This document shows positions 27,949 through 42,656 of a stretch of DNA of 42,656 bases, one piece after another. The notes below the pieces were generated by a model. That model saw only the letters and a program-made list of their open reading frames with translations, searched no databases and was not told where the DNA came from. This DNA comes from a virus (Duplodnaviria > Heunggongvirae > Uroviricota > Caudoviricetes), in the IMG/VR virus record IMGVR_UViG_2718218168_000005; one strand, 5' to 3'. The translations under genes and the position numbers were made by a program. Numbering within the stretch: the stretch's first letter is position 1; each line of letters begins with the position of its first letter.

Positions 27949-27949
27949 G

Positions 27950-28228: not shown

Positions 28229-28294
28229 CGGTTTTCTCCGGTGGCACGGTGTTACTCAGCGGGAGTTCAGCCCCGCGCAAGATTGTAGATGAGT

Positions 28295-28546: not shown

Positions 28547-28674
28547 CAGAATCCTTCCGGATAATTAGCTCTCCCCTTTAAGGGACCATCCCTCTTATCC
28601 CTGCGCGCTACTTAAGTATTTTTGATTCTATTCCGGCACCGTCCAGAACTTCAAACGCGTTGAAAATAAAAACA

Positions 28675-28694
28675 AAAACCCGCCGAAGCGGGTT
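28675..28694 (-). terminator. Rho-independent terminator of the relB-relE-hokD operon
   Basis: Hairpin aacccgc-cgaa-gcgggtt followed by T-run on the minus strand. Confidence 0.7.
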
Positions 28695-28762
28695 AAGTGC
28701 GGGTGCGTTGAGGATGCCTGCCACATCAGAGGTGGCGAGGGATTTCTCCCCCGCCGGGTCTC

Positions 28763-28918
28763 TTACTCCTCAGGTTCGTAAGCTGTGAAGACAGCGACCT
28801 CCGTCTGGCCGGTTCGGATTCGTACCTCGCAGAGGTCTTTCCTCGTTACCAGTGCCGTCACTATGACGGTTAAACAGATGACGATCAGGGCGATTAACAT
28901 CGCCTTTTGCTGCTTCAT
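28763..28918 (-). CDS. hokD: Hok-family type I toxin (51 aa)
   Basis: Translated by hand: MKQQKAMLIALIVICLTVIVTALVTRKDLCEVRIRTGQTEVAVFTAYEPEE; below the ORF-track cutoff. Confidence 0.9.
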   Translation of the reverse strand: MKQQKAMLIALIVICLTVIVTALVTRKDLCEVRIRTGQTEVAVFTAYEPEE

Positions 28919-28989
28919 AGCCTGCTTCTCCTGTCAACGCAAAGCAGAAGTGTCACCTTCGGTGCGAAACAGAGATGTCATGCTTTGGT

Positions 28990-29277
28990 TCAGAGAATGC
29001 GTTTGACCGCCTCGCTATATACTTCCGAGCGTTCTCTTTTCCCAACAGAAATCACGAAAACGACAACTTTCTCGTCTATAACCTGGTATACAAGGCGATA
29101 GCCTGAAGACCGGAGCTTAATCTTGTAACAATCAGGCATACCACGGAGCTTGTTTGCTTCAATCCGGGGTGACTCAAGTACTTCAACCAGCTTCTTTTTC
29201 AACTGTTCACGTACCGTCGAGCCCAGCTTTCGCCATTCCTTTAGTGCCCGCTCGTCAAAATCCAGAAAATACGCCAT
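28990..29277 (-). CDS. relE: RelE mRNA-interferase toxin (95 aa)
   Basis: Matches recalled RelE. Confidence 0.92.
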   Translation of the reverse strand: MAYFLDFDERALKEWRKLGSTVREQLKKKLVEVLESPRIEANKLRGMPDCYKIKLRSSGYRLVYQVIDEKVVVFVISVGKRERSEVYSEAVKRIL

Positions 29278-29516
29278 CAGAGTTCATCCAGCGTCACACG
29301 TACTGGCTTAGGATTACGAAGCCGTTCTTTCACTATCTCCACAAGTTCAGCATCTTCATCACTCAGGAGTGTCTGTTTGAACGGCAAGCGTTCATTGTCA
29401 GCGATATACTCGAGCATGAGACGAAGCGCTTCAGAAGGAGTTACACCCATTTTTTCAAGCGCGGCGTAAGAACGCGCTTTAAGTTCATCGTCAATACGCA
29501 GGTTAATGCTACCCAT
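29277..29516 (-). CDS. relB: RelB antitoxin (79 aa)
   Basis: Matches recalled RelB; overlaps the relE start. Confidence 0.92.
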   Translation of the reverse strand: MGSINLRIDDELKARSYAALEKMGVTPSEALRLMLEYIADNERLPFKQTLLSDEDAELVEIVKERLRNPKPVRVTLDEL

Positions 29517-29540
29517 GTCTTACACCTCTTGTAATTACAA

Positions 29541-29846
29541 ATGTCATTACAAGTATCGCACTACAACATGCTTAGGGCAAGTCACGAAGGAAGTCAGAAA
29601 GTAGTCGTAAGAACGGTGATCACTGTCCGCTTTGTGCCAGGAGCAGCCATTGCTAAGTCCATCCTGTATTGTGCAGGTCAGCTCGTTTTTAAAGAGTCCG
29701 GCCATCATCTTACTGGTACAGACACCATATACTTTGTGACGGTCAGGCTACATATGCACAACTCAACTTATTCATCTATTTTTTGCTTTAGCATGTCAGT
29801 GTTGCTTTCTCGTCGGCGGGTGAGCGGTGACCTGACCTGTCGATAA
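29541..29846 (+). CDS. ydfV: hypothetical protein YdfV-like (101 aa)
   Basis: Position between relB and flxA as in Qin; function unknown. Confidence 0.5.
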   Translation: MSLQVSHYNMLRASHEGSQKVVVRTVITVRFVPGAAIAKSILYCAGQLVFKESGHHLTGTDTIYFVTVRLHMHNSTYSSIFCFSMSVLLSRRRVSGDLTCR

Positions 29847-29998
29847 AGGAACGTAACACGTTTTATGCAACACCCGCATGCGGCAGAAAATTATTGCCGA
29901 ACGTTTACCCCTGTCAACAAGCTTTACTTTCTGAGGCGCGCCAGCCCGCGAGGAAAACAATCTGAACATCAAACAATTAATGACACAAGAAATACGAT

Positions 29999-30025
29999 TA
30001 AAGATTTTTTTGTACATGCCGATAG
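29999..30025 (+). promoter_or_regulatory. Sigma-28 (FliA) promoter for flxA
   Basis: TAAAGATT-N11-GCCGATAG, close to the class III consensus TAAAGTTT-N11-GCCGATAA, about 25 nt upstream of flxA. Confidence 0.7.
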
Positions 30026-30048
30026 TGCTTTTTTAAAAGGAGAAATCT

Positions 30049-30381
30049 ATGTCTGTCACAATTCAGGGAAATACCTCAACCGTTATTTCAAACAACTCCG
30101 CCCCGGAAGGAACATCAGAAATAGCCAAAATCACAAGACAAATTCAGGTGCTGACTGAAAAGCTTGGGAAAATCTCATCGGAAGAGGGGATGACGACACA
30201 GCAGAAAAAAGAAATGGCTGCATTGGTACAGAAGCAAATTGAAAGCCTCTGGGCTCAACTGGAGCAGTTGTTAAGGCAGCAGGCAGAGAAAAAGAATGAA
30301 GACGCGACAGTTCAGCCTGATAAAAAAGAAGAGAAAAAAGACGATACAAATACCGCTGGCACCATTGATATTTACGTCTAA
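30049..30381 (+). CDS. flxA: FlxA (FliA-regulated protein, 110 aa)
   Basis: Matches recalled FlxA; AGGAGA SD upstream. Confidence 0.85.
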   Translation: MSVTIQGNTSTVISNNSAPEGTSEIAKITRQIQVLTEKLGKISSEEGMTTQQKKEMAALVQKQIESLWAQLEQLLRQQAEKKNEDATVQPDKKEEKKDDTNTAGTIDIYV

Positions 30382-30395
30382 GTGACAGCCGTATT

Positions 30396-30420
30396 GTGGC
30401 CCTCATCGGGCCACTTTTCG
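30396..30420 (+). terminator. Rho-independent terminator downstream of flxA
   Basis: Hairpin gtggccc-tcatc-gggccac followed by TTTT. Confidence 0.65.
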
Positions 30421-30817
30421 CCATCAGCCTTTTCTTTAAAGACATATTATCTTTGTATCATTTCTGATAGTTAACATTACAAGATATAAGTAATGGACGC
30501 ACTCCCAATTAGTCTATTTAAATCGCCACGAGTTTAACTGACAACCCATGATCAATTATGAATTGCAACTATTTCTGTAGTCACTTTTGTGGGGACAGTC
30601 CACAAAACTGCCAACTTCCGCTTCTTGCTCTTAGCGGACATTAGCATAGGCTATTTACCATAACGCCTCATTACGCGCACCGCCCAGACTGACTCAGCGC
30701 GTTTCTGGCATATCCCCGGTAAAACAAGTAACAAACCACCCGAAAATGAACACCAGAAACGCGACTTAAGAATCTACCCTATGAATGGATATGCACTCAA
30801 CCGAATCGATCTTGGTT

Positions 30818-32158
30818 TCAATCTTTTTTATCGGGATCAGGCTTCTTTTTAGGTAACTTCGGGGGCTTAACTTGCTGATGACTTTGCGTTCGGCGCGTAA
30901 GCCAGGGATGGTCAGCTTTAGGTTTAACATAGTATTTTGAGCGTAAATCAATACGGGCATTATCCACTCGTTCATGGACACTCTTTTCATCATCCAGTGG
31001 TATAGGCTCCGGGCCATCAACATACTTTTCCCAGCCCAGCGCTTTCCCGTCATACAGAACGTTAATTTCACCGTCAAAGTTCTCGCATACAGTAACAACC
31101 GAATGCCTAAGTCGATATCCCCGGCTCTCACTGCGTACCTGAAACGCACTGCTTTTGTACTGGAAAGTGAGATTTTTAGACAGAACGCGCTTCGCCTGTA
31201 GGCTGAAGATATAACCCAGTTCCTCTTCAGAATGGTGCACATCAAGATGAGCATTATCAGTAGTACGAGGCGACGTAGCGAACCGGTTGTTATAGGCTTC
31301 AATAAAGGTCGGCAACCATGCATTTGCTGTTTCAATATCACTGATATTCTGAAGCCGCATTTCTTTGACCAGCCTGTCCTGTAGTGTCTGATTGGCGCGC
31401 TCTACCCGCCCTTTTGCCTGCGGGCTGTTGGCATGGATTGGCTCGATGCCCAGTGTCTTTATCGCACGAGTGAACTGGGTCAGCTCACCTTCCCGCTCTG
31501 GGTTATTTACCCTGAATATACTGTGTCTATCAGAGTAGAGAGCGAGCGGTACGCCATGATCATTAAGGTAACCCCGGAGGGTTTCCATGTAAGCCCGGGT
31601 TGTTTCAGCAGGCACAAAACGCAACGCCATCAACGCACTGGTGGCATCATCAATGAAAACGATCAGTGTACATCTGGGGCCTCGATTTTCAAACCAGTCA
31701 TGAGGTGAGCCATCAATCTGGATCAGTTCACCGTAAGATGGTCGTCGCATGCGGCGTTGATATATACGGGCAATTTTACGACGGCGTTCACGCCATAACC
31801 CCTCTTCTATCATCCACTTTCTGAGAGTTTCAACGGATAAAGATAAACCGTGTATCTCGCGCAATTTTTCGCACGCAAACGTAGGTCCAAAATCAGCGTA
31901 ACGGCCTTTGAGGAGTGAAATTACTGTTGCTCTGAATTCAGTAGAAAAGGAATTATTAGGACGCTTTCCACGTCGGTGGGAAACCAGACCAGAAGGCCCT
32001 TCATTTCTATACCGTTGCACCAGACGTTTAACCTGCCGAATAGAAATGCCAATGCGTGCCGCAGCTTGTTCCTGAGTAATATGTCGATTAATTGACTCCT
32101 GAATAATCTGAAGTCGGTGGAGTTCCTTATGACTCATCGTAACAGTCTCTTTGATCAT
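30818..32158 (-). CDS. DDE transposase with rve (integrase core) domain and N-terminal HTH, IS481/IS1202-like (446 aa)
   Basis: Motifs IQIDGSPHDW, FIDDATS and ANSPQAKGRVERANQTLQ form a DDE triad; element boundaries not identified. Confidence 0.75.
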   Translation of the reverse strand: MIKETVTMSHKELHRLQIIQESINRHITQEQAAARIGISIRQVKRLVQRYRNEGPSGLVSHRRGKRPNNSFSTEFRATVISLLKGRYADFGPTFACEKLREIHGLSLSVETLRKWMIEEGLWRERRRKIARIYQRRMRRPSYGELIQIDGSPHDWFENRGPRCTLIVFIDDATSALMALRFVPAETTRAYMETLRGYLNDHGVPLALYSDRHSIFRVNNPEREGELTQFTRAIKTLGIEPIHANSPQAKGRVERANQTLQDRLVKEMRLQNISDIETANAWLPTFIEAYNNRFATSPRTTDNAHLDVHHSEEELGYIFSLQAKRVLSKNLTFQYKSSAFQVRSESRGYRLRHSVVTVCENFDGEINVLYDGKALGWEKYVDGPEPIPLDDEKSVHERVDNARIDLRSKYYVKPKADHPWLTRRTQSHQQVKPPKLPKKKPDPDKKD

Positions 32159-32166
32159 GAAAAATC

Positions 32167-32186
32167 CCCCAGAGAATTGTCTGGGG
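32167..32186 (-). promoter_or_regulatory. Hairpin overlapping the transposase Shine-Dalgarno sequence
   Basis: Perfect 7-bp stem ccccaga/tctgggg with 6-nt loop; on the minus strand the GGGGGA SD lies within and next to the 3' arm. Confidence 0.4.
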
Positions 32187-32492
32187 ACATTTTAGAATGG
32201 TTCAAAGGGGACATTACAGCTTGGTGTTAACAATAGCCTGCTTCTCCGTGCCTTTCGGCACGTAAGAGGCTAACCTACATGTGTCTAGCATGAAATTGGC
32301 CTCAGATTAATGTTAAGCGTCTTGCAGGACGCGTAATGTTAACTGGGGCTTTTCTCTATCTGCCGTTGGTGTCCATGCCCGAGGCAGATAGCCTCAAGCA
32401 CCCGCAGTCATTCTACTTAACTAAGATTTCCCCGCAAACCGTTTTTGTCCAGCACAGTAAATATCCAACTAAACCAATGGAGTTCGCTGTAT

Positions 32493-32672
32493 TTACCGCC
32501 AGTATTCAATGCACATGACCGCCATGAACACCCCTAAAAAAAGGGCATTTATATATCCAAATATTAATATCAAAACATCAACTTTTTCCATATACCTTGC
32601 TGTGAAGATGATGGGCATACATGATGCGAACAACCAGAACGCAACAAACAAAAACTGCAATGCGTTTTTCAT
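32493..32672 (-). CDS. hypothetical small membrane protein (59 aa, two predicted TM segments)
   Basis: AGGAGG 5 nt upstream of ATG; MKNALQFLFVAFWLFASCMPIIFTARYMEKVDVLILIFGYINALFLGVFMAVMCIEYWR. Confidence 0.45.
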   Translation of the reverse strand: MKNALQFLFVAFWLFASCMPIIFTARYMEKVDVLILIFGYINALFLGVFMAVMCIEYWR

Positions 32673-32958
32673 TATTCCTCCTACAATCAATGTGCAATTA
32701 CATTTAAACACACCTCAATTTGGCCGGACATATAAATATCTAAACCAGAAAAAATCACTTACATAGCGTTACAAACTCTTTAGTCTAAAGGTTCATCGTA
32801 AAACATTCCCCATACTTATCAGTCCGTTCCGCGCCAGGTAGCTCATTGCCTTATCTGGCAACCTGTAATCAGGTTTCCGCTTTTTCAGTTGGCTGGTCGT
32901 TTAACCGACATAGTTAATCCATTAATCTAGTTGCCGGATGTTGGTGGATTTTCGCGTT

Positions 32959-33213
32959 TTAGTTGTTCATAAAAGTGCACAGCTTTAACCAGTTCTTCTG
33001 ATGTAACCGGGACTGGTGAGGCAGTGAATAAGGCCTGAATTTGATAGTTCGGCCTGTCGTTACAATCCTCTTTTTTCGGTACATATTTCCAGTCACCAGA
33101 CCACTACTTCCCCTGAAAGTCCGTAACGCTTTTTTCACGTAGCGATATCGCCATGCCACTGGTTTTGCTTGCCCCGCCGTTTCATGCCCTTCCTGATAAT
33201 TAATCTCGCTCAT
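32959..33213 (-). pseudogene. Possible disrupted gene: best-looking reading frame is interrupted by an in-frame TAG and flanked by A6 runs
   Basis: Hand translation in three frames; the frame ending ...PVPVTSEELVKAVHFYEQLKRENPPTSGN looks protein-like but is cut by TAG, and the ORF-track 84-aa frame looks low-complexity. Confidence 0.3.
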
Positions 33214-33823
33214 TCATCGCCCCACTCATCACAATATGCTTCGACCGGAGTTTTTCCCGCTTCATAGTCATCACGTTAGGATTCGACATCAGCAGCACTT
33301 CCACCGCGTAATTCACCATAGTCCATTAATAGTTCATCCCGCTCTTCAAAACTGATGTTATATTTAGCTGAACAAAAATCAGCCACTTTGTTCTTCCTCA
33401 TCGTCTTTTATTTCGTGGTATGAGTAATTGCAGTAGTTAAAGAAAATTTCTTATGCTCCGTCATGAATTTCATCAGGTGTTGCGTCATCGTCCACTTCGA
33501 ATACATCCTCAAAATCTCCACCAGCTATTTCCGTTTCAATAATAATTTTGAACTTTCGCATTTCACTACCGCCCTTTCGGGCGGCCTCCTGATGTTCTGA
33601 GGGTGCAGAAATCCATCCGGTTAAGGATTAAGTTTTATTTACAGAACTGAATTTAATTATTCAGATATACGTATCTGTAACCTTACGAATCTACTCACTG
33701 GATGCCTCTTTCATAAAAATAATCCAGTGGGTTTTATCGTTTTTTCCCTGTTCGTTGACAGATAACAGGCTTTCTATCTGTCAGTGCCAGAATCTGGCTT
33801 ACCGGTATTTGCGTTTCATTCCA

Positions 33824-34180
33824 TTAAAAAATCAGAACGCCGTGCGGCCTCAACACCCGAAAAGCTTCTTTAAATCTCTGTCGCAAATCATCACGCCAGG
33901 CATCTTTATTCAGCCGTCCATATTTCTTTCCCATCCAGGCGTTATCACCAACACGCTCAAGATGCGGAGGGTCTAATACAACCATCGAAAAAGATGCGTC
34001 TGCAAATGATAATGCACGAAAATCTGCGATAATGTCAGGGCTGATAATCAAGCGTCTCCCATTGCGTAATGTGTATCCTTCTTTTCTGATATCGCTGAAT
34101 ATCGCCCGTTTGTCAGACTTATCGAACCAGAACATGCGGCTGCCACAGCACATATCAAGAATGGTTGCCGGTGCACTCAC
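33824..34180 (-). CDS. SAM-dependent DNA methyltransferase fragment (118 aa; motif I-like and DPPH motif IV, no target-recognition domain)
   Basis: ILDMCCGSRMF (motif I-like) and VVLDPPH (motif IV-like); ORF stops at a T6 run and no extension exists in any frame. Confidence 0.5.
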   Translation of the reverse strand: MSAPATILDMCCGSRMFWFDKSDKRAIFSDIRKEGYTLRNGRRLIISPDIIADFRALSFADASFSMVVLDPPHLERVGDNAWMGKKYGRLNKDAWRDDLRQRFKEAFRVLRPHGVLIF

Positions 34181-34599
34181 TGCGCCACGTCCTGAAAATT
34201 ACCCTGATAGAAAGCCAGTATGCGCTGCATAACTTCGCTCTTCCGGCACTCGCGACAGATTATGTTTAGGCGACTGTCGTAGCGACGTATTTCTCCGTCA
34301 GGTGATGACCAGATAAGGTCCGGATCAACCATAGCAGGTTTCTTCACCTTTGCCCTCGAGAGTTTTTTGCGGGCGTTTTGCCAGTCCTTACGCGCCTGTT
34401 CAGAGGGGAATAACCCGTAGCCGGAGTTGTATACATCGCCACTGGCTACCAGCTCTCTGGCAAGAACGCTCATCAGATATCTAGTCGCACCTGTTTTAGC
34501 TTCCAGTTGCCGTAACGTCTCACGGCCGCTCTGGCGCACGAGTTCCACCACCTGCCATTTAATTTTTTCCCGCTCTTCTTGTGTAAAAACTTTTGCCAC
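34177..34599 (-). CDS. hypothetical protein (140 aa) downstream of the replication gene
   Basis: 4-nt overlap with the methyltransferase fragment start; basic central region, C-terminal CxxC; no family recognised. Confidence 0.5.
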   Translation of the reverse strand: MAKVFTQEEREKIKWQVVELVRQSGRETLRQLEAKTGATRYLMSVLARELVASGDVYNSGYGLFPSEQARKDWQNARKKLSRAKVKKPAMVDPDLIWSSPDGEIRRYDSRLNIICRECRKSEVMQRILAFYQGNFQDVAQ

Positions 34600-34639
34600 A
34601 AGTCCCCCTTAAAATTACCTCATGACCTGAAATCAACAC

Positions 34640-35605
34640 TTATCCTCTGAAACCAGGCGGAATTTCTGTATCCGGTTCAGAAATATGATTAACACAACGC
34701 TGTACAGGTGAACGTCCCAGGCGGATGACCAGTTCGTCCCATTTTTCGCGGAGCTTTGACGGGCTCATGATGTTTTTTACCCAGAATGGATCTCGCTGAA
34801 CCCGACCAAACATTTCGCAAATTTGTCTGTGGCTTCTGCCATCCAGCATCCGCATTGTGCGCACGTCATTGGCCCAGGCAGTCCAGTTAGGCTCTTTTGG
34901 TCGCATGATCTCGCCATCATCACTGGCTGCCTGTTCGTAGAGACCCACGATCCGCCCCCAGATCCACTGCGCACACGCCAAATCCTCCCTGCTACCCCAC
35001 TGGCGTTTTTTCGCACTAAACACAACCGCGTCGGAGTTCCGGGTTAAAGAATCCTGTTCAGTCGTCTGCGGGTCCGGTTGCGAAGCTTCCGGACGAAAAG
35101 TGTTTTTATTCTCTGTAGTAATCTCTGTTGTATTCTCTGTAAGATCATCAGGCCATTTTGACCCGATGACATTGGGTCGTTTTGAACCAATGGAGCGTTT
35201 CATTTTGACCTCTTCCATCGTGTCATTTTGACCTGATGGAGCGGCGCATTTTGAACCGATGGATTCGCTCAATTTGCCACCATCTAAAAGCTCGCTCCCA
35301 TAGTTGATCGTGTAGAAATTGGTCATATCGCGCTTTGATTTATTGAGCTTTTCACAACGCAAAAGCCCCAGCGTTTTCAGACTTGCAAACGCGCGCTTTA
35401 ACGTTGACTCTGACCAGAATGGGAACTGTTCCAGCCATTGTTCCGTTGTGTTATAAATCCAGCGAACACCATCACATTCCATGCCGGAGTTGGTATCTCT
35501 CAACCAGTAGTGCAGTTGTTGCAAAACAATGGCTTCGTTTAAGCCAATTTTCATTGCCAGCTGCGTGTTTATAACCAGTGGGCGTTCAGCAAAAAGAAGG
35601 CTCAT
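34640..35605 (-). CDS. Phage replication initiation protein, lambda O-like organisation (321 aa from MSLLFAERP; ORF-track start 35659)
   Basis: Position after cro/cII-like genes; iteron array lies inside the coding sequence; GGATGG upstream of the ATG at 35605. Confidence 0.6.
   Translation of the reverse strand: MSLLFAERPLVINTQLAMKIGLNEAIVLQQLHYWLRDTNSGMECDGVRWIYNTTEQWLEQFPFWSESTLKRAFASLKTLGLLRCEKLNKSKRDMTNFYTINYGSELLDGGKLSESIGSKCAAPSGQNDTMEEVKMKRSIGSKRPNVIGSKWPDDLTENTTEITTENKNTFRPEASQPDPQTTEQDSLTRNSDAVVFSAKKRQWGSREDLACAQWIWGRIVGLYEQAASDDGEIMRPKEPNWTAWANDVRTMRMLDGRSHRQICEMFGRVQRDPFWVKNIMSPSKLREKWDELVIRLGRSPVQRCVNHISEPDTEIPPGFRG
35154..35284. repeat. Iteron array (5 to 6 copies of CATTTTGA(C/A)C(C/T)GATGG at about 23-bp spacing) plus adjacent TCTCTGT repeats: putative replication origin
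   Basis: Repeats start at 35154, 35179, 35201, 35224, 35247 and 35270; TCTCTGT x3 at 35110..35140. Confidence 0.7.
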
Positions 35606-36107
35606 AATTCCATCCAGCTTTTTGTTGGTATTGCTGTCGATACGCAAGCTTGAAAGCAATTGCTTTTTCTATAAGTTCGTCAGTTTCACGATCCACTACG
35701 GCAGGATCAGCAAAAAGCAGTCCGGACTCCACCACATCGCCATATTCTTTGTTTAACCCGGCGATCATGCACGTGATGCTTTTTCCGTCAGTAATTTCAC
35801 GATACAACCTGAAATCACTAATCCGGATAGCCTCCATAATCGCAGGCACTAGCGCCGTGAACTTTTCACGCTTATCCCTGGTGTCGATAGCCTTCCAGCG
35901 TTCGAATATCTTCACTCGATTAACACCAAGCGCTCGCTGATCAACCGCGCCACCTTCATCTGTGACACGCTGAACATCGATGTTCGGGCGCTCTTTCAAA
36001 GCCCAGAATGCTTCAGTGATTAATATCGTCGCCTGCTCCTGTGTCATTCCTGGTCGACATATCCAGGCATCCAGAGCCTCACGAGCCTGTTCAGGAGTGA
36101 TTTTCAT
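35586..36107 (-). CDS. hypothetical protein at the cII position, possibly YdaT-like regulator (173 aa)
   Basis: Directly downstream of the cro-like dicC with 17-nt overlap; YdaT-likeness is from weak recalled similarity only. Confidence 0.45.
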   Translation of the reverse strand: MKITPEQAREALDAWICRPGMTQEQATILITEAFWALKERPNIDVQRVTDEGGAVDQRALGVNRVKIFERWKAIDTRDKREKFTALVPAIMEAIRISDFRLYREITDGKSITCMIAGLNKEYGDVVESGLLFADPAVVDRETDELIEKAIAFKLAYRQQYQQKAGWNYEPSFC

Positions 36108-36318
36108 TGTTCAACCGCCCCGCCCGCTTCGTCTTACGATATTCATCATAAACTTTGGGATCATACTGAAGCTCCCCGCCAGATGCCTCCTGTAGACGCA
36201 TCGCGCGACCTTCAGGAACCAGTATCCCCCAAGCAGCAACACTTGCCAGCCTCACTCCTGCGGCATTGGCAAGCTTTGTTTTGCTGCCAAAAAAAGTAAT
36301 TGCGTCAACTTTAAGCAT
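36091..36318 (-). CDS. dicC: DicC, Cro-like regulator (75 aa from MLKVDAITFFG)
   Basis: Matches recalled DicC; GAGGGGGG SD upstream of the ATG at 36318; divergent from dicA. Confidence 0.85.
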   Translation of the reverse strand: MLKVDAITFFGSKTKLANAAGVRLASVAAWGILVPEGRAMRLQEASGGELQYDPKVYDEYRKTKRAGRLNNENHS

Positions 36319-36332
36319 CAAAGCCCCCCTCT

Positions 36333-36350
36333 TGTTAGACTTTTCTAACA
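36333..36350. promoter_or_regulatory. Operator palindrome TGTTAGA-N4-TCTAACA in the dicC/dicA intergenic region
   Basis: Perfect 7-bp inverted repeat with 4-bp spacer just upstream of the dicC start. Confidence 0.6.
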
Positions 36351-36399
36351 TTATTGTGCGCGGGATACCTAAGTCAAGAAAAATTAGAATTACCTAACT

Positions 36400-36807
36400 A
36401 TGGATACAAGAACCCTGGGCCAGCGAGTTCTGGCGCGACGAAAAGAATTACGCTTAACACAACGAGAAGCCGCGCGCCTCGCTGGAGTTGCTCACGTCAC
36501 AATTTCACAATGGGAAAGAGACGAAACCCAGCCAGTCGGAAAACGATTGTTTGCTTTAGCGGATGCTCTGAAGTGCTCACCTACATGGCTAATGTTTGGT
36601 GACGAAGACAAGGCACCAGTGCCTGCACAAGAACTTCATGTGGAAACAGAGCTAACTCCCAACCACAAAGAATTGATCGAATTATTCGATGCTCTTCCAT
36701 CTTCCGAGCAGGAAGCCTTGCTGTCTGAAATGCGCGCAAGAGTAGAAAACTTCAACAAACTCTTCGAAGAAATGCTTAAAGCGCGTAAAAATAAATCAAT
36801 AAAATAA
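36400..36807 (+). CDS. dicA: DicA, CI-like HTH repressor (135 aa)
   Basis: Matches recalled DicA (MDTRTLGQRVLARRKELRLTQREAARLAGVAHVTISQWERDETQP...). Confidence 0.92.
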   Translation: MDTRTLGQRVLARRKELRLTQREAARLAGVAHVTISQWERDETQPVGKRLFALADALKCSPTWLMFGDEDKAPVPAQELHVETELTPNHKELIELFDALPSSEQEALLSEMRARVENFNKLFEEMLKARKNKSIK

Positions 36808-36842
36808 CATTCTTTTCAAGTGATTAGTTGCGCCCACCCTTT

Positions 36843-36862
36843 TTGTTAGATCAATCTAACAA
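36843..36862. promoter_or_regulatory. Second operator palindrome TTGTTAGAT-CA-ATCTAACAA between dicA and ydfA
   Basis: Perfect 9-bp inverted repeat with the same TGTTAGA-N4-TCTAACA core as 36333..36350. Confidence 0.6.
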
Positions 36863-36879
36863 AAAACACTTGCCTCTCA

Positions 36880-36897
36880 TGTTAGGTTATTCTAAAT
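36880..36897. promoter_or_regulatory. Third, degenerate operator-like site TGTTAGG-N4-TCTAAAT
   Basis: One mismatch per half-site relative to the other two sites. Confidence 0.35.
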
Positions 36898-36975
36898 TAT
36901 TTTCCATCAAGACACCGCACGGTGTTCTCAGCAAACAGTTCCGCTACCCCGGCGTTAAGGGGAAATGAGGTCAGC

Positions 36976-37131
36976 ATGGATACTATCGATCTTGGCAACA
37001 GCGAATCTCTGGTATGTGGCGTGTTCCCCAACCAGGACGGTACGTTCACCGCGATGACGTATACCAAAAGCAAAACGTTTAAAACCGAAAATGGTGCCCG
37101 TCGCTGGCTGGAAAGAAACCCAGGTGAGTGA
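36976..37131 (+). CDS. ydfA: YdfA-like small protein (51 aa)
   Basis: MDTIDLGNSESLVCGVFPNQDG...; GAGG SD upstream of the ATG at 36976. Confidence 0.75.
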   Translation: MDTIDLGNSESLVCGVFPNQDGTFTAMTYTKSKTFKTENGARRWLERNPGE

Positions 37132-37132
37132 T

Positions 37133-37261
37133 ATGGATTTCGACACAATCATGGAAAAGGCTTACGAAGAATACTTCGAAGGTCTTGCCGACGGCGAAGA
37201 AGCTCTCAGCTTCAACGAATTTAAACAGGCGCTTTCCAGTTCGGCAAAATCTAACGGCTGA
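37133..37261 (+). CDS. ydfB: YdfB-like small acidic protein (42 aa)
   Basis: Hand-translated MDFDTIMEKAYEEYFEGLADGEEALSFNEFKQALSSSAKSNG; starts 1 nt after the ydfA stop. Confidence 0.7.
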   Translation: MDFDTIMEKAYEEYFEGLADGEEALSFNEFKQALSSSAKSNG

Positions 37262-37290
37262 TAAGCGAAACAGCACCGCGAGGAATCAGT

Positions 37291-37509
37291 ATGCAGAAAC
37301 GAGAACCCGTCATCATCGCGCCAGACTATACCGATGATGAACTTTATGAGTGGATGCGCCAGAAAATTAATGCAGCGCAGGATTTGAAATGGGCCAATGA
37401 AACCAGGGCTAAGCAGGCTGAAAATCTGTCCGCTCTGGAGCAGGATATCACCAATCTGGAAAAAGCAGCGGCATTAAGCATTGCCAGAATGATTACATAC
37501 CCGCGTTAG
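37291..37509 (+). CDS. ydfC: YdfC-like protein (72 aa)
   Basis: ORF-track protein; position in the dicB operon. Confidence 0.7.
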   Translation: MQKREPVIIAPDYTDDELYEWMRQKINAAQDLKWANETRAKQAENLSALEQDITNLEKAAALSIARMITYPR

Positions 37510-37849
37510 TAGCTAATCAACAAAGCTAAGGTTAGTAATTAAGGAGTTCTCCACGGGTGAGGTGGAGTGCGTGCGCCGGACACGGGTGAGCATCCGGCAC
37601 TGACAGTTTACTGAAAGGATATTTCCCTGAAAAGTCAGACCATAACGCGAAAGCGCACGGCGAGGTAGCTGGTTCATAGATAGCCTGTCGTTAAATTTTC
37701 GTCGACCGTGCGCTTCCGGTTGTGGCAACCCGCGAAATGGCGCGGCGGTAAGTATGGCGGGGTTATTCCTTCCCCGTTGAGGACACCGGGTTGTCAGGTT
37801 GACCATACGCTTAAGTGACAACCCCGCTGCAACGCCCTCTGTTATCAAT

Positions 37850-37906
37850 TTTCTGGTGACGTTTGGCGGTATCAGTTTTACTCCGTGACTGCTCTGCCGC
37901 CCTTTT
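37850..37906 (+). ncRNA. dicF: DicF small regulatory RNA (ftsZ-targeting sRNA) with intrinsic terminator
   Basis: Sequence TTTCTGGTGACGTTTGGCGGTATCAGTTTTACTCCGTGACTGCTCTGCCGCCCTTTTT matches recalled DicF; ends are approximate. Confidence 0.85.
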
Positions 37907-38076
37907 TAAAGTGAATTTTGTGATGTGGTGAATGCGGCTGAGCGCACGCGGAACAGTTAAAACCAAAAACAGTGTTATGGGTGGATTCTCTGTATCCGGC
38001 GTTAATTGTTAACTGGTTAACGTCACCTGGAGGCACCAGGCACTGCATCACAAAATTCATTGTTGAGGACGCGATA

Positions 38077-38265
38077 ATGAAAACGTTATTACCAAACGTT
38101 AATACGTCTGAAGGTTGTTTTGAAATTGGTGTCACTATCAGTAACCCAGTATTTACTGAAGATGCCATTAACAAGAGAAAACAAGAACGGGAGCTATTAA
38201 ATAAAATATGCATTGTTTCAATGCTGGCTCGTTTACGTCTGATGCCAAAAGGATGTGCACAATGA
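38077..38265 (+). CDS. dicB: DicB cell-division inhibitor (62 aa)
   Basis: MKTLLPNVNTSEGCFEIGVTISNPVF... matches recalled DicB. Confidence 0.9.
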   Translation: MKTLLPNVNTSEGCFEIGVTISNPVFTEDAINKRKQERELLNKICIVSMLARLRLMPKGCAQ

Positions 38266-38453
38266 ATTCAGCATTTGTGCTTGTTCTGACAGTTTTTCTT
38301 GTTTCCGGAGAGCCAGTTGATATTGCAGTCAGTGTGCACAGGACAATGCAGGAGTGTATGACTGCAGCAACCGAACAGAAAATTCCCGGTAACTGTTACC
38401 CGGTCGATAAAGTTATTCACCAGGATAATATCGAAATCCCGGCAGGTCTTTAA
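38262..38453 (+). CDS. ydfD: YdfD-like small membrane/lysis protein (63 aa)
   Basis: ATGA overlap with the dicB stop; N-terminal hydrophobic segment. Confidence 0.8.
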   Translation: MNSAFVLVLTVFLVSGEPVDIAVSVHRTMQECMTAATEQKIPGNCYPVDKVIHQDNIEIPAGL

Positions 38454-38545
38454 AACAGTTCCGTAATAAATATCCGGTTTCATTCTTATATGCCAGCAAT
38501 GGCAGGGATTTGTTCATCCTTAAATCTGTCATGAGGTTAAAACAA

Positions 38546-41017
38546 ATGAGTAAAGTCTTTATTTGCGCCGCTATTCCTGACGAACTGGCAACAAGGGAAG
38601 AAGGCGCTGTGGCTGTAGCCACAGCCATTGAAGCTGGCGACGAACGCCGTGCTCGAGCAAAATTTCACTGGCAATTCCTGGAACATTATCCGGCTGCTCA
38701 GGACTGCGCTTATAAATTTATTGTCTGCGAGGATAAACCTGGCATACCCCGCCCTGCCCTCGATTCATGGGATGCTGAATATATGCAGGAAAACCGCTGG
38801 GATGAGGAGTCTGCTTCTTTTGTCCCGGTTGAGACTGAATCCGATCCGATGAACGTCACTTTTGACAAGCTGGCCCCTGAAGTACAGAACGCTGTCATGG
38901 TTAAGTTCGACACATGTGAAAACATCACCGTTGATATGGTTATTAGCGCACAGGAATTGTTGCAGGAAGACATGGCAACATTCGACGGACATATCGTTGA
39001 AGCGTTGATGAAAATGCCAGAAGTTAACGCCATGTATCCGGAGCTTAAGTTGCACGCCATTGGGTGGGTTAAGCATAAATGTATTCCTGGTGCTAAATGG
39101 CCCGAAATTCAGGCAGAGATGCGCATCTGGAAAAAACGTCGCGAAGGTGAACGCAAGGAAACCGGAAAATACACGTCTGTTGTTGATCTCGCCCGCGCCA
39201 GAGCCAATCAACAGTACACTGAAAATTCAACAGGAAAAATCAGCCCGGTCATTGCTGCCATTCATCGCGAATACAAGCAGACATGGAAAACACTGGATGA
39301 CGAACTGGCCTACGCTCTCTGGCCTGGTGATGTGGATGCCGGAAACATTGACGGCAGCATCCATCGCTGGGCAAAAAAAGAAGTTATCGACAACGACCGC
39401 GAAGACTGGAAGCGTATCTCGGCATCAATGCGCAAACAGCCTGATGCCCTTCGCTACGACCGCCAAACTATTTTTGGCCTTGTCCGTGAGCGTCCGATCG
39501 ACATTCACAAAGATCCCGTAGCACTGAACAAATATATCTGCGAATACCTGACGACAAAGGGCGTGTTTGAGAATGAAGAAACAGACCTGGGCACTGTTGA
39601 TGTTCTCCAGTCATCAGAAACACAAACTGATGCAGTGGAAACTGAGGTATCTGATATCCCAAAAAATGAAACCGCGCCGGAAGCTGAACCATCTGTAGAG
39701 CGTGAGGGGCCGTTCTATTTCCTCTTCGCAGATAAGGACGGAGAAAAATACGGTCGCGCAAACAAACTCTCTGGTCTGGATAAGGCACTGGCTGCTGGCG
39801 CCACTGAAATCACAAAAGAAGAATATTTTGCCCGAAAAAATGGCACATACACGGGCTTACCGCAAAATGTAGATACCGCTGAAGATTCAGAACAACCAGA
39901 GCCGATAAAAGTTACCGCTGACGAAGTAAACAAAATTATGCAGGCAGCCAATATCAGCCAGCCTGACGCCGATAAGTTGCTTGCTGCATCACGTGGTGAA
40001 TTTGTTGAAGGGATTAGTGACCCGAATGATCCGAAATGGGTTAAGGGGCTCCAGACCCGCGATTCTGTGAACCAGAACCAGCATGAATCGGAACGGAACT
40101 ACCAAAAAGCGGAACAAAACAGTCCAAATGCGTTACAAAACGAGCCAGAAACGAAACAGCCTGAACCAGTAGCGCAACAGGAAGTGGAAAAAGTCTGCAC
40201 CGCCTGCGGTCAGACCGGCGGCGGCAACTGCCCTGATTGTGGCGCGGTGATGGGCGACGCAACATACCAAGAAACATTCGATGAAGAGTATCAGGTTGAA
40301 GTTCAGGAAGATGATCCGGAGGAAATGGAAGGCGCTGAACATCCACACAAGGAGAACACTGGCGGCAATCAGCATCACAATAGCGATAATGAAACTGGCG
40401 AGACGGCAGATCACCCAATTAAGGTGAACGGTCATCACGAAATCACATCCACCAGCAGGACGTGTGACCATCTAATGATCGACCTTGAAACCATGGGAAA
40501 AAATCCTGATGCCCCGATCATCTCAATAGGTGCAATATTTTTCGATCCGCAAACCGGAGATATGGGACCGGAATTTAGTAAGACTATCGATCTGGAAACT
40601 GCTGGCGGAGTCATTGATCGGGACACCATTAAATGGTGGCTTAAGCAATCACGCGAAGCGCAATCTGCCATTATGACCGATGAAATCCCGTTAGATGATG
40701 CACTGTTACAATTGCGAGAATTTATCGACGAAAACTCCGGTGAATTTTTTGTTCAGGTTTGGGGAAATGGAGCCAACTTCGACAACACGATTTTGCGCCG
40801 TTCATACGAACGGCAGGGGATCCCCTGCCCGTGGCGTTACTACAACGATCGCGATGTACGCACAATCGTTGAGCTGGGGAAAGCCATAGACTTCGATGCC
40901 AGAACGGCTATTCCATTCGAAGGTGAGCGCCATAATGCACTTGATGACGCCCGTTACCAGGCAAAATACGTTTCAGTTATCTGGCAAAAACTGATCCCGA
41001 GTCAGGCTGATTCTTAA
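38546..41017 (+). CDS. ydfE: Large prophage protein (823 aa): N-terminal domain of unknown function, CxxC-x10-CxxC zinc ribbon, C-terminal DEDDh (DnaQ-like) 3'-5' exonuclease domain; intact counterpart of the K-12 ydfE fragment
   Basis: Exo motifs DLET (I), WGNGANFD (II), HNALDDARY (III); GAGG upstream of the ATG at 38546; the ORF-track frame begins at a TTG at 38510. Confidence 0.8.
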   Translation: MSKVFICAAIPDELATREEGAVAVATAIEAGDERRARAKFHWQFLEHYPAAQDCAYKFIVCEDKPGIPRPALDSWDAEYMQENRWDEESASFVPVETESDPMNVTFDKLAPEVQNAVMVKFDTCENITVDMVISAQELLQEDMATFDGHIVEALMKMPEVNAMYPELKLHAIGWVKHKCIPGAKWPEIQAEMRIWKKRREGERKETGKYTSVVDLARARANQQYTENSTGKISPVIAAIHREYKQTWKTLDDELAYALWPGDVDAGNIDGSIHRWAKKEVIDNDREDWKRISASMRKQPDALRYDRQTIFGLVRERPIDIHKDPVALNKYICEYLTTKGVFENEETDLGTVDVLQSSETQTDAVETEVSDIPKNETAPEAEPSVEREGPFYFLFADKDGEKYGRANKLSGLDKALAAGATEITKEEYFARKNGTYTGLPQNVDTAEDSEQPEPIKVTADEVNKIMQAANISQPDADKLLAASRGEFVEGISDPNDPKWVKGLQTRDSVNQNQHESERNYQKAEQNSPNALQNEPETKQPEPVAQQEVEKVCTACGQTGGGNCPDCGAVMGDATYQETFDEEYQVEVQEDDPEEMEGAEHPHKENTGGNQHHNSDNETGETADHPIKVNGHHEITSTSRTCDHLMIDLETMGKNPDAPIISIGAIFFDPQTGDMGPEFSKTIDLETAGGVIDRDTIKWWLKQSREAQSAIMTDEIPLDDALLQLREFIDENSGEFFVQVWGNGANFDNTILRRSYERQGIPCPWRYYNDRDVRTIVELGKAIDFDARTAIPFEGERHNALDDARYQAKYVSVIWQKLIPSQADS

Positions 41018-41089
41018 TGTTCAACTGTCGCCGGTTGTGACTGGTATTCTGCAACCGGCGCTCGTCTGATGTAAGAGATAAAGAAATCG

Positions 41090-41341
41090 ATGAGCGAAGT
41101 AATCATGATTGTCTCTCCCGGCAAATGGGTATCCGAAGAGCAGTTAATTGCGCTGAAAGGAATAAAAAAAGGTACGTTAAAAAAGGCCCGGGAAAAATCG
41201 TTTATGGAAGGAAGGGAATATAAGCATGTCGCTCATGACGGTATGCCATGGGATAACAGTCCATGCTTTTACAACCTGGAAGAAATTGATCGCTGGATTG
41301 AGCGCCAGGCATCAGCGAGACCAAGACGTCATCTTACTTGA
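41090..41341 (+). CDS. Excisionase-like protein (83 aa)
   Basis: Small protein immediately upstream of the integrase gene; start uncertain (41090 or 41105). Confidence 0.55.
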   Translation: MSEVIMIVSPGKWVSEEQLIALKGIKKGTLKKAREKSFMEGREYKHVAHDGMPWDNSPCFYNLEEIDRWIERQASARPRRHLT

Positions 41342-41375
41342 CTAAAAGTCACACTAACTAATGAGAGAAGTTGAA

Positions 41376-42656
41376 ATGAAATATCCGACAGGCGTGGAAA
41401 ACCATGGAGGGAAATTACGTATCTGGTTTGTTTATAAAGACGTAAGAGTCAGGGAAAATCTGGGGGTTCCTGACACAGCAAAAAACAGGCGCGTTGCAGG
41501 TGAACTACGCTCCTCTGTTTGTTACGCAATAAAAACTGGTGTTTTCGACTATGCAAAACAGTTTCCCTCCTCACGCAATCTGGAAAAATTTGGTGAGGCC
41601 CGACAAGATTTAACCATAAAAGAACTGGCTGAAAAATTTCTGGCGCTGAAAGAAACTGAAGTCGCCAAAACATCACTCAACACATACCGTGCCGTCATCA
41701 AAAATATCCTGAGCATAATCGGTGAAAAAAATCTTGCCTCATCGATTAATAAAGAAAAATTACTGGAGGTTCGTAAAGAGTTACTGACTGGATACCAGAT
41801 CCCCAAAAGTAACTATATTGTTACACAACCAGGGAGATCGGCTGTAACTGTAAATAATTACATGACAAATCTTAACGCCGTGTTCCAGTTTGGTGTTGAT
41901 AACGGTTACCTGGCAGATAATCCGTTTAAGGGGATCTCGCCATTAAAGGAATCAAGAACCATTCCGGATCCTCTTTCGCGGGAAGAATTTATCCGTCTTA
42001 TCGATGCGTGCAGAAATCAGCAAGCAAAAAATTTATGGTGTGTTTCTGTTTATACTGGAGTTCGCCTTGGTGAGCTGTGTGCACTTGGATGGGAGGACAT
42101 AGATCTGAAAAATGGAACAATGATGATCAGGAGAAATTTAGCAAAAGACCGTTTCACGGTACCAAAAACACAGGCGGGAACCAATCGGGTCATTCATCTT
42201 ATTAAGCCAGCAATCGACGCTCTCCGGAGTCAGATGACATTAACGAGACTGAGCAAAGAGCATATCATTGATGTTCACCTCAGAGAGTATGGCAGAACAG
42301 AAAAACAAAAATGCACCTTTGTTTTTCAACCTGAAGTGTCAGCGAGAGTAAAAAATTATGGTGACCATTTTACCGTTGACTCAATAAGGCAGATGTGGGA
42401 CGCAGCGATAAAACGTGCCGGACTCCGCCATCGAAAATCATATCAGTCGAGACATACTTATGCCTGCTGGTCGCTGACAGCTGGTGCTAACCCGGCATTT
42501 ATAGCAAACCAGATGGGCCATGCAGATGCGCAAATGGTATTTCAGGTATACGGAAAATGGATGTCTGAAAACAATAATGCACAGGTAGCTTTGTTAAATA
42601 CACAGTTAAGCGAGTTTGCCCCAACCATGCCCCATAACGAAGCAATGAAAAATTAA
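41376..42656 (+). CDS. intQ: Tyrosine integrase, lambda Int family (426 aa), apparently intact
   Basis: C-terminal catalytic region with R (GVRLGE), H-x-x-R (SRHTYACW) and HADAQMVFQVYGKW containing the catalytic Tyr; stop codon at 42654..42656. Confidence 0.85.
   Translation: MKYPTGVENHGGKLRIWFVYKDVRVRENLGVPDTAKNRRVAGELRSSVCYAIKTGVFDYAKQFPSSRNLEKFGEARQDLTIKELAEKFLALKETEVAKTSLNTYRAVIKNILSIIGEKNLASSINKEKLLEVRKELLTGYQIPKSNYIVTQPGRSAVTVNNYMTNLNAVFQFGVDNGYLADNPFKGISPLKESRTIPDPLSREEFIRLIDACRNQQAKNLWCVSVYTGVRLGELCALGWEDIDLKNGTMMIRRNLAKDRFTVPKTQAGTNRVIHLIKPAIDALRSQMTLTRLSKEHIIDVHLREYGRTEKQKCTFVFQPEVSARVKNYGDHFTVDSIRQMWDAAIKRAGLRHRKSYQSRHTYACWSLTAGANPAFIANQMGHADAQMVFQVYGKWMSENNNAQVALLNTQLSEFAPTMPHNEAMKN

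Follow-up and report, generated by a model that had tools for sequence, protein, structure and literature searches.

The window, which has 42,656 bases and is the whole stretch of DNA analysed here, contains a prophage immunity region of the Qin type. This locus comprises a dicA allele (36400..36807, + strand), coding for a short C2/CI-type repressor of 135 amino acids, the divergent dicC gene (36091..36318, - strand, with its ATG as CAT at 36316-36318), annotated in RefSeq on an identical genome and coding for a Cro-like repressor of 75 amino acids, and, past dicA, the controlled operon ydfABC-dicF-dicB (36976..38265, + strand). This operon includes ydfA (36976-37131), ydfB (37133-37261), ydfC (37291-37509), the DicF RNA (37851-37902; Rfam DicF, 76.7 bits) and dicB (38077-38265), all on the + strand, as assigned from the open reading frames, the RefSeq annotation of the identical locus and collinearity. 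The order is that of Qin, with dicC divergent from dicA and ydfA-ydfB-ydfC-dicF-dicB following on the dicA strand, as seen from the open reading frames and the K-12 and RefSeq annotations. A preliminary description of this DNA had called the operon leftward, which holds in the sense of the lambda map only, since in the window it lies on the + strand, runs rightward and is co-directional with dicA. The prophage keeps int, xis and an exonuclease gene, and collinearity places its rem gene near 28295-28546 of the window.

The DicC protein is 86% identical to K-12 DicC and belongs to the Pfam P22_Cro family (E = 4.9e-12). The repressor, already named dicA in the preliminary description, is indeed a DicA allele, but a diverged one that is just 57% identical to K-12 DicA and is not the K-12 protein. 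Its N-terminal domain matches P22 C2 in a phmmer search of the PDB (1adr, E = 1.3e-18; 2r1j, E = 3.6e-18; also 3jxb), whereas Pfam gives HTH_3 / HTH families only and no S24/LexA-type autocleavage domain was found in its 135 residues. The lengths expected for a Qin switch, 135 amino acids for DicA and roughly 76 for DicC, compare with 135 and 75 in the window.

Three promoters can be proposed. The dicC promoter, equivalent to PR (36350..36377, - strand), has a -35 TTGACT (36377-36372), a 16-nt spacer and a -10 AATAAT (36355-36350), with 10 of 12 consensus matches in a consensus scan, and its start is predicted at A36343; the -35, as AGTCAA, is invariant across the window, K-12 and P22. For dicA we read from the sequence a predicted -10, TAGAAT (36385..36390, + strand), with a start near A36396, and this hexamer aligns with TAAGAT of P22 and with the annotated P22 PRM start, located 4 nt before the c2 ATG. 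Because a Shine-Dalgarno sequence is lacking, the dicA mRNA would be near-leaderless. The predicted dicC and dicA starts are separated by 53 bp, and the two promoters are interdigitated, one having its -35 located between the two hexamers of the other. The dicB-operon promoter, dicBp (PL equivalent, 36870..36898, + strand), was assigned by anchored comparison with K-12 and P22 PL, and has a -35 TTGCCT (36870-36875), a 17-nt spacer, a -10 TAAATT (36893-36898) and a predicted start near A36906, in a conserved CCATCAA. It is absent from the consensus-scan list because its 8 of 12 matches fall below the scan threshold, and both this promoter and that of dicA are putative assignments based on homology.

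The preliminary description had listed three sites bracketing dicA; all three are real, but there are four. Site S1 (36333..36350; TGTTAGACTTTTCTAACA, TGTTAGA-CTTT-TCTAACA; 24.3 bits) is the perfect 7-4-7 palindrome upstream of dicC, as previously given. It begins at a distance of 14 nt from the ATG of dicC and spans approximately -7 to +11 of the predicted dicC promoter, whose start it thereby contains. In the dicA-ydfA region, site S2 has a perfect 7-4-7 core (36844-36861; TGTTAGATCAATCTAACA; 24.1 bits) and lies 8 nt upstream of the dicBp -35. The extended palindrome reported there at 36843..36862 was right but conservative, as the perfect arms, of 12 nt each (36840-36851 and 36854-36865), form a perfect 26-bp palindrome, TTTTTGTTAGAT-CA-ATCTAACAAAAA (36840..36865). 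The degenerate copy at 36880..36897 is also present, as S3 (TGTTAGGTTATTCTAAAT, TGTTAGG-TTAT-TCTAAAT; 16.1 bits), with three mismatches to the 7-4-7 pattern and two to TGTTAG-N6-CTAACA; it occupies the spacer and -10 of dicBp, and its right arm is also the -10 hexamer. The site that had been missed, S4 (36382..36399; AATTAGAATTACCTAACT, AATTAGA-ATTA-CCTAACT; 15.8 bits), is the OR3 equivalent, a degenerate site that adjoins the dicA ATG and extends over the -10 and start predicted for dicA. The overall layout is therefore dicC (cro-like, transcribed away from S1), S1, S4, dicA, S2, the -35 of dicBp, S3 together with its -10, and then ydfABC-dicF-dicB.

The core TTAG-N6-CTAA occurs four times in the window, against 0.18 expected, always in the two intergenic regions flanking dicA, so that all four matches fall within about 250 nt of 42.6 kb; none of 100 shuffles reached this number. 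In addition, a weight matrix trained solely on sites from other lineages was run over the whole window, and the four sites were its top four matches (23.1, 22.3, 15.4 and 14.3 bits; next match 13.7). The scores of the two perfect sites were not equalled in any of 50 shuffles, while S3 and S4, with an equally good match in 3 and 7 of 50 shuffles, respectively, are marginal when taken singly, and so are convincing mainly by their position. Two further candidates, at 34111-34128 (three mismatches) and 22305-22322 (left half-site only), were attributed to chance, their scores being at or below the best in shuffled sequence. No third site near either promoter and no site upstream of dicF scored above 2.9 bits. 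At the positions of OR2 and OL3 a site is not recognisable (scores below 2 bits), and GTGCGCGGGATACCTAAG, found at the former, lacks the left arm.

In order to compare half-sites between repressors, we used a set of about 18 DicA lineages (DicA identity 48-100%), taking the sites by fixed-register extraction, as an automatic choice of the best 7-4-7 match upstream of dicA had picked unrelated palindromes in several of them. The site layout is constant over these lineages, and S1, S2 and S3 change their half-site jointly, following the repressor lineage, with CCTTAGG, TGTTGAG, ATTGAG/CTCAAT, TAAC-TTTT-GTTA and CTTAAC as alternatives to TGTTAG. The sharing of 6-mers is block-diagonal, and the half-site co-varies with both the DicA lineage and the DicA recognition helix. 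Within the present allele the central 4 nt and the flanks vary and the arms are nearly invariant: S1 has invariant arms and a variable centre (20 distinct flanks), the variation of S2 is concentrated in the central 4 nt (38 distinct flanks), and S3 is nearly invariant. Altogether, the sites can be followed, conserved and co-varying, through more than 100 related loci; their existence, positions and significance, like their homology and co-variation, are direct results of the present comparison. Looping between S1 and S2/S3 with a conserved helical phase was considered and rejected: the centre distances of 511, 518-519 and 564 bp correspond to 48.7, 49.3-49.4 and 53.7 turns, so the phase differs between lineages and looping is unsupported.

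Much is known about the corresponding switch of E. coli K-12. There, the operator Oc (TTGTTAGTCATAACTAACAA) binds DicA in vivo, a single A-to-C change abolishing this binding, and it overlaps the dicC -10, with the dicC start determined by 5' RACE inside it; from Oc, DicA acts as a repressor of dicC and an activator of dicA (PMC3441716). Operators in both intergenic regions were already predicted in 1988 (Bejar et al. 1988, as cited in PMC10448788), the switch is bistable, and dicBp is repressed 22-fold by DicA, an effect lost in its absence (PMC10448788). K-12 DicC represses dicA 48- to 84-fold, and in ChIP-seq its peaks flank dicA and show a palindromic motif, TT(A/C/T)G...C(G/A/T)AA (PMC11430063). 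Other sources are less precise: the DicA site at dicBp was graded as low-evidence by the Reg-Seq authors, with neither footprint nor mapped location (PMC7567609), genomic SELEX gives DicA targets at operon level only (PMC8249747), and the main text of a ChIP compendium does not mention DicA or DicC (PMC12059191).

Judging from the sequence, the repeated palindromes are almost certainly binding sites of the prophage repressor that silences the cell-division inhibitor genes, and we put at about 85% the probability that they form the operator set of a P22-type immunity switch carried by a Qin-like prophage. The earlier proposal of OR/OL-like repressor operators controlling the dicC promoter and ydfABC-dicF-dicB is supported by the gene order, the C2 and P22_Cro homologies, the register of the sites and their co-variation, and it also agrees with the published K-12 data (PMC3441716, PMC10448788, PMC11430063). 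In the proposed switch, to which binding of the sites by this allele's own DicA and DicC would be central, DicA dimers would recognise TGTTAG(A)-N-(T)CTAACA through the N-terminal HTH domain homologous to P22 C2, and the Cro-like DicC would most likely bind the same sites. DicA on S1 would turn the dicC promoter off by covering its start site and the edge of its -10, and because that promoter would be off, the interdigitated near-leaderless dicA promoter would be favoured; activation of dicA would then proceed by relief of promoter competition. S4, at the OR3 position, would allow DicC, or DicA in excess, to turn dicA off. At dicBp, S2 and S3 would jointly exclude RNA polymerase, keeping ydfABC-dicF-dicB silent, and S3 may look degenerate because its right arm must double as the -10 hexamer TAAATT.

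A more tentative extension of this scheme, which we consider rather unlikely as it stands, is that the OR2-position operator was lost in this lineage, leaving the switch with one strong operator, at the OR1 position, and with indirect activation of dicA. DicA at S1 would in that case turn dicA on by evicting polymerase from the interdigitated dicC promoter, and a contact activation from OR2 in the style of lambda and P22 would be excluded, because the predicted dicA start is about 55 bp downstream of S1; S4 would mainly be a shut-off site for DicC. If true, this would be a simpler, two-operator form of the three-operator lysogeny switch, typical of short antirepressor-controlled repressors.

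The operator function of S4 is the part of the P22-type switch most open to another explanation, namely that S4 is an ancestral OR3 remnant, conserved only for the dicA -10 (TAGAAT) and the near-leaderless start, and to this we give somewhat less than even odds. The co-variation of S4 is weak, with S1-S4 sharing of 6-mers weak or zero outside the TGTTAG group, so that it may serve as promoter and leaderless start only, and its sequence is better conserved across specificity groups than those of S1-S3. The K-12 counterpart Oa, like Om, showed no DicA binding in the in vivo assay (PMC3441716), and K-12 dicA mRNA is leaderless by dRNA-seq (PMC4681348). In contrast, S4 retains an intact TTAG-N6-CTAA core and is the fourth best matrix match of the window, it has the same position as P22 OR3, a bona fide C2 operator, and in some lineages it follows the local half-site symmetrically (e.g., TATTAAG-ATAT-CTAAAT versus TATTGAG-TTTT-CTCAAT). 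The repression of dicA by DicC reported for K-12 also requires a site (PMC11430063).

A second question is which protein the sites serve. The DicC peaks with a matching motif on both sides of dicA (PMC11430063), the reported binding of YjdC to the dicC operator region (PMC9283627) and the antagonism of DicA by the Cnu-H-NS complex at K-12 Oc (PMC3441716) could suggest that they serve essentially DicC or a host protein (e.g., YjdC or H-NS/Cnu) instead of DicA. This we consider improbable: in K-12 the repression through Oc is DicA-dependent and is abolished by a point mutation (PMC3441716), the DicA N-terminal domain is homologous to P22 C2, which binds 18-bp 7-4-7 sites, and a host factor would not cause the half-site to co-vary with the DicA lineage and recognition helix. 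Joint use by DicA and DicC is in any case expected of such a switch, and does not constitute a true alternative.

Even less probable is that the S2 palindrome acts as an RNA hairpin terminating dicA transcription. It lies 33 nt past the dicA stop codon, and the RNA folds with -12.2 kcal/mol (z = -2.7 relative to shuffles), but the hairpin is A/U-rich and followed by AAAAAACAC, an A run instead of a U tract, and a terminator scan of both strands was negative at 36840-36870, for which reasons this candidate was rejected. Furthermore, the arms have the same sequence as those of S1, which is not in a terminator position, it is the loop that varies, the arms staying constant and free of compensatory changes, the motif shifts in concert with S1 across lineages, and P22 has OL2 in the same place. 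Finally, chance matches in AT-rich intergenic DNA have a negligible probability, because, although the 7-4-7 pattern with up to three mismatches is not significantly enriched in the window (four matches versus 1.24 expected; four of 100 shuffles reach four), the two perfect matches specify 14 bases each, and the clustered core count, the matrix ranking, the polymorphism and the conservation with co-variation in the related loci refute this explanation.

These findings are a refinement of known biology and not a discovery. The promoter dicBp controls DicB and DicF, two products that block cell division, become toxic once repression is lifted, and change both metabolism and the susceptibility to phages. 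It is thus the exact operators that determine when a cryptic prophage is harmful or useful to its host. As its upstream dicBp operator is a perfect palindrome, the window is a cleaner substrate than K-12. The comparative set further provides a register-exact model, in which S2 and S3 correspond to P22 OL2 and OL1, and a small table of recognition-helix/half-site pairs, with at least six specificities, which could help to direct footprinting work or the engineering of repressors.

The switch has already been described for E. coli K-12 Qin and for P22, and the window presents this known biology in a new allele. K-12 Qin shares with it the chromosomal site (rspA/ynfA side), the gene order, rem, relBE and hokD, the half-sites TGTTAG-N6-CTAACA and the dicC promoter elements. 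S1 is the equivalent of Oc in the same register, with the Oc-type repeat TTGTTAG-N6-CTAACAA over the dicC -10 and start, and S4 is the equivalent of Oa; no counterpart of the K-12 Om sequence was found in the window. In both, two sites 35-36 bp apart flank the dicBp -35, but the upstream one, perfect over 26 bp in the window, is degenerate in K-12 (TGTTAGCTATAGCATACA, 14.3 bits, versus 24.1).

The preliminary description had compared the arrangement with lambda, and the logic is indeed the same, but P22 immC is, from the sequence comparison, the closer model. P22 has a homologous repressor N-terminal domain (C2), a Cro of the P22_Cro family and 18-bp operators with 7-4-7 geometry, and in anchored alignments with the annotated P22 record S1, S4, S2 and S3 fall on OR1, OR3, OL2 and OL1 within 1 nt. 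S4, in register with OR3, agrees with it at 13 of 18 bases, S3 is in identical register with OL1 (AATTAAGAAGTCTTAAAT), with TAAATT in both, and S2 and S3 flank the -35 like the best P22-consensus sites at PL. Also common to both are AGTCAA as the PR -35, TAAATT as the PL -10, a CCATCA at the transcription start, and TAACT-ATG at the beginning of the repressor gene. For the dicA-ydfA region we used an ungapped alignment anchored on the -35, as a MAFFT alignment had mis-registered the promoter, and around the promoter 35 of 81 bases are identical (21 of 10,000 shuffles reach 35). The two differ in that P22 has three operators per side (OR1-3, OL1-3) and the window two per intergenic region, in that the 135-residue DicA ends in a short helical C-terminus and is devoid of an S24 autocleavage domain, unlike the P22 repressor, and in the first genes past the PL-like promoter, ydfABC in the window and the N-like gene 24 in P22. 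Given the half-sites TGTTAGA and ATTTAAG, respectively, they are expected to be heteroimmune.

Lambda has in common with the window the divergent repressor/cro pair, the operators over PR and PL, the leaderless repressor mRNA (predicted as near-leaderless in the window) and the bistability reported for K-12 (PMC10448788), but a relationship between the operator sequences is not detectable, and the lambda features of three 17-bp operators on each side, spaced by about 24 bp, of cooperative tetramers/octamers of CI and of RecA-induced cleavage are not evident in the window. The short antirepressor-controlled repressors of the Gifsy type resemble the window in both the lack of a cleavage domain in DicA, K-12 DicA likewise having no Ala-Gly bond (PMC10448788), and the presence of rem in the same prophage. 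Rem relieves DicA repression in K-12 (PMC10448788), and a Rem-DicA pairing, putative for the present allele, would concern the inactivation of the repressor and not its operators.

The two intergenic regions flanking dicA hold four copies of one palindrome, putative DicA operators that we call S1 to S4. The preliminary description had listed three TGTTAGA-N4-TCTAACA sites bracketing dicA, and all three are real: S1 (36333-36350, TGTTAGACTTTTCTAACA), upstream of dicC, and the core of S2 (36844-36861, TGTTAGATCAATCTAACA), between dicA and ydfA, match the 7-4-7 pattern perfectly, and S3 (36880-36897, TGTTAGGTTATTCTAAAT) departs from it by three mismatches. Repeat analysis showed that the S2 core lies inside a larger perfect palindrome whose arms measure 12 nt (36840-36851 and 36854-36865), and revealed a degenerate fourth copy, S4 (36382-36399, AATTAGAATTACCTAACT; pairs I1 and I11), directly 5' of the dicA ATG. 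The core TTAG-N6-CTAA has four matches in the 42,656-base window, exactly S1-S4, where 0.18 are expected, and this count was reached in none of 100 shuffles; the sites occur more often than expected by chance. By its count alone, the looser 7-4-7 pattern, with three mismatches allowed, is not significant. With a weight matrix trained on sites from other lineages only, S1-S4 are the top four positions window-wide (23.1, 22.3, 15.4, and 14.3 bits). The score of the two perfect sites, S1 and S2, was attained by no shuffle; S3 and S4 are each marginal against shuffles, and their weight as sites comes from position and conservation. Rank five, at 13.7 bits, is a perfect left half-site without a right arm (22305-22322, TGTTAGACATAATTATTA), which probably arose by chance inside one of two cspA-thermoregulator matches (22075-22460 and 24938-25361, minus strand; 113 and 159 bits, Rfam). 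These matches are the predicted leaders of two cold-shock-protein genes in the left-hand stretch of the prophage, which is not collinear with the CFSAN064036 RefSeq record.

Many E. coli chromosomes match the 1.6 kb surrounding the sites at 100% identity. In one of them the region belongs to a prophage adjoining rspA and ynfA, with rem, relBE, hokD, a Q antiterminator, an exonuclease gene, xis, and int; window positions 26899-42656 are collinear with the record of this chromosome (CFSAN064036). The dicC-like gene (36318-36091, minus strand) encodes a protein with 86% identity to K-12 DicC and the Pfam domain P22_Cro, and the dicA-like gene (36400-36807, plus strand) a protein of 135 aa with 57% identity to K-12 DicA and HTH_3 as its only Pfam domain. 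The ATG at 36318 is supported as the dicC start by RefSeq annotation and by homology with K-12; a mechanical ORF (36091-36351, minus strand) starts at an upstream ATG, 36351, and would put S1 within coding sequence. The controlled operon is headed by ydfA, ydfB, and ydfC (36976-37509), followed by the DicF RNA (37851-37902; Rfam, 76.7 bits) and dicB, a cell-division inhibitor (38077-38265), all on the plus strand. It had been described as leftward, which holds only on the lambda map; in the window it runs rightward, on the dicA strand. Rfam also gives a sok antitoxin match (32232-32403, minus strand, 104 bits), for which the collinear RefSeq stretch (L002, ~8234-8405) has no annotated hok gene. 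This stretch is flanked by a partial ISEsa1 transposase on one side and a frameshifted ORF on the other, with the annotated hokD ~3.4 kb off, and is a possible second hok/sok locus that has escaped annotation.

The dicC promoter is a good sigma-70 sequence on the minus strand (TTGACT, 16 nt, AATAAT, 36377-36350), whose -10 touches S1 and whose predicted start, A36343, falls within it. For dicBp, the promoter of the ydfABC-dicF-dicB operon, comparison with K-12 and P22 places the -35 (TTGCCT) at 36870-36875 and, after a 17-nt spacer, the -10 (TAAATT) at 36893-36898, followed by a conserved CCATCAA. S2 ends 8 nt before this -35, and S3 occupies the spacer, its last five bases being the first five of the -10; S3 is degenerate because its right arm, TCTAAAT, must double as the -10. 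Inside S4, TAGAAT (36385-36390) forms a predicted -10 located 9 nt 5' of the dicA ATG, which no Shine-Dalgarno precedes. As dRNA-seq shows K-12 dicA mRNA to be leaderless (PMC4681348), and the P22 record annotates the PRM start 4 nt 5' of the c2 ATG, the dicA mRNA is likely near-leaderless, with an OR3-position site on its promoter. The start sites assigned to the three promoters are putative.

A leader of ~70 nt (36906-36975) separates the ydfA ATG from the predicted start of dicBp and is conserved even where DicA and the operators differ between lineages. It comprises a 5' hairpin (ACACC-GCAC-GGTGT, 36912-36925), the motif GTTCCGCT (at about 36941-36948), and a second hairpin (CCCC-GGCGTTAA-GGGG, 36950-36965) that RNAalifold keeps over 10 lineages, with compensatory changes in two of four pairs. 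No Rfam family matches the leader, which takes the place of P22 nutL (boxA and boxB) and is a possible antitermination element of nut or put type, for which no N-like partner is known.

DicA alignment searches yielded 21 loci in genomes and 80 in viral contigs. The four-position layout is present in all lineages, at DicA identities of 48 to 100%, and the half-site follows the repressor lineage and, in most cases, its recognition helix. Helix HV(T/S)(I/V)SQWE is found with TGTTAG/CTAACA, (A/T)(S/T)ISLWES with TGTTGAG/TTAAACA, SSISLWES with ATTGAG/CTCAAT, SVSVFKWE with TAAC-TTTT-GTTA, and HVTIFKWEN with CTTAAC-type half-sites. The Enterobacter lineage (L007) retains HVTISQWE, yet its outer bases change from TGTTAG to CCTTAGG (CCTTAGG/CCTAAG), so recognition must also involve residues outside helix 3. 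Half-site changes are concerted at S1, S2, and S3, and counts of 6-mers common to a lineage's S1 and S2/S3 regions are block-diagonal by group. The DicA-like short repressors form at least six operator-specificity groups concerted at three positions (loci L007, L010, L012, L014-L020). Among the 75 loci with the window's own allele (20 and 38 distinct flanks), most polymorphism falls in the central 4-nt spacers of S1 and S2 or in the DNA beside the sites; hardly any affects the arms, and S3 shows next to no variation. A palindrome bound by protein, its centre uncontacted, should vary in this way; an RNA stem should instead show compensatory changes in the arms.

Doubt attaches only to S4, which may act as an operator or may be no more than the core promoter of dicA; the weak shared 6-mer signal at this site is a point for the second reading. 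Binding of the sites by a host factor alone would leave their co-variation with repressor lineage unexplained. A chance origin is excluded by the core counts, the co-variation, and the weight matrix, and S2 was rejected as a terminator, having no U tract, a negative terminator scan, and arms that share sequence with S1. The data lend no support to looping in helical phase between the two clusters of operators.

We infer that the window allele's own proteins bind these operators. Most likely, DicA dimers on S1 would occlude the dicC promoter, and DicA on S3, aided by the strong S2 a few bases 5' of the -35, would occlude dicBp, keeping ydfABC, DicF, and DicB silent. When the switch flips, the same sites would be used by DicC, for which S4, over the dicA -10 and start, would be the natural place to shut off dicA. 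DicA may activate its own gene by clearing polymerase from the interdigitated dicC promoter, the predicted starts being 53 bp apart. Since DicA has no S24 domain, derepression would proceed via the antirepressor Rem or repressor instability, not RecA cleavage (PMC10448788).

The model is already published. In K-12, the operator Oc, which overlaps the dicC -10, shows DicA-dependent repression in vivo that a single A-to-C change abolishes; DicA bound there represses dicC and activates dicA, and no DicA binding to Om and Oa was seen in the same in vivo assay (Yun et al. 2012, PMC3441716). The passage of Ragunathan et al. (2023, PMC10448788) that cites Bejar et al. 1988 states that lambda PR/PL-like operator sequences occur in both intergenic regions; that study showed 22-fold derepression of dicBp without DicA, an antirepressor, Rem, and bistability that depends on DicC. 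DicC ChIP-seq peaks flank dicA, and their MEME motif TT(A/C/T)G...C(G/A/T)AA (PMC11430063) agrees with the TTAG-N6-CTAA core of the window. The Reg-Seq authors consider the DicA site for dicB low-evidence, its binding location unknown (PMC7567609). The S1 equivalent is validated in K-12, where the individual sites at dicBp are putative.

K-12 Qin follows the same layout: Oc (TTGTTAGTCATAACTAACAA) and Oa (ATTTAGCATTAGCTAACT) are the counterparts of S1 and S4, and a pair of TGTTAG sites, spaced by 35 bp, surrounds TTGACC. In contrast, the upstream dicBp operator has decayed in K-12 (TGTTAGCTATAGCATACA, L001 1078-1095, 14.3 bits), whereas the window site (36844-36861) is perfect (24.1 bits), so that repression of dicBp may be tighter here. 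The preliminary observation is confirmed and its OR/OL-like interpretation supported as to operators at the dicC and dicB-operon promoters, with strand direction, site number, and closest model corrected, the last being P22 rather than lambda. At the positions of P22 immC OR2 and OL3 the window has no recognisable DicA-type site, and alignment with the annotated P22 region shows that S1, S4, S2, and S3 share the register of OR1, OR3, OL2, and OL1. OR1 and S1 each lie about 14 nt from the cro-like start, with registers equal within 1 nt, and OR3 and S4 both adjoin the repressor ATG, with 13 of 18 bases identical. AGTCAA (PR -35), TAAATT (PL -10), and CCATCA are also common to both regions. The N-terminal 70 residues of DicA match the P22 C2 DNA-binding domain (E = 1e-18). 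The locus represents a diverged allele of a known switch, that of DicA and DicC in Qin, itself a P22-type immunity region in trimmed form.
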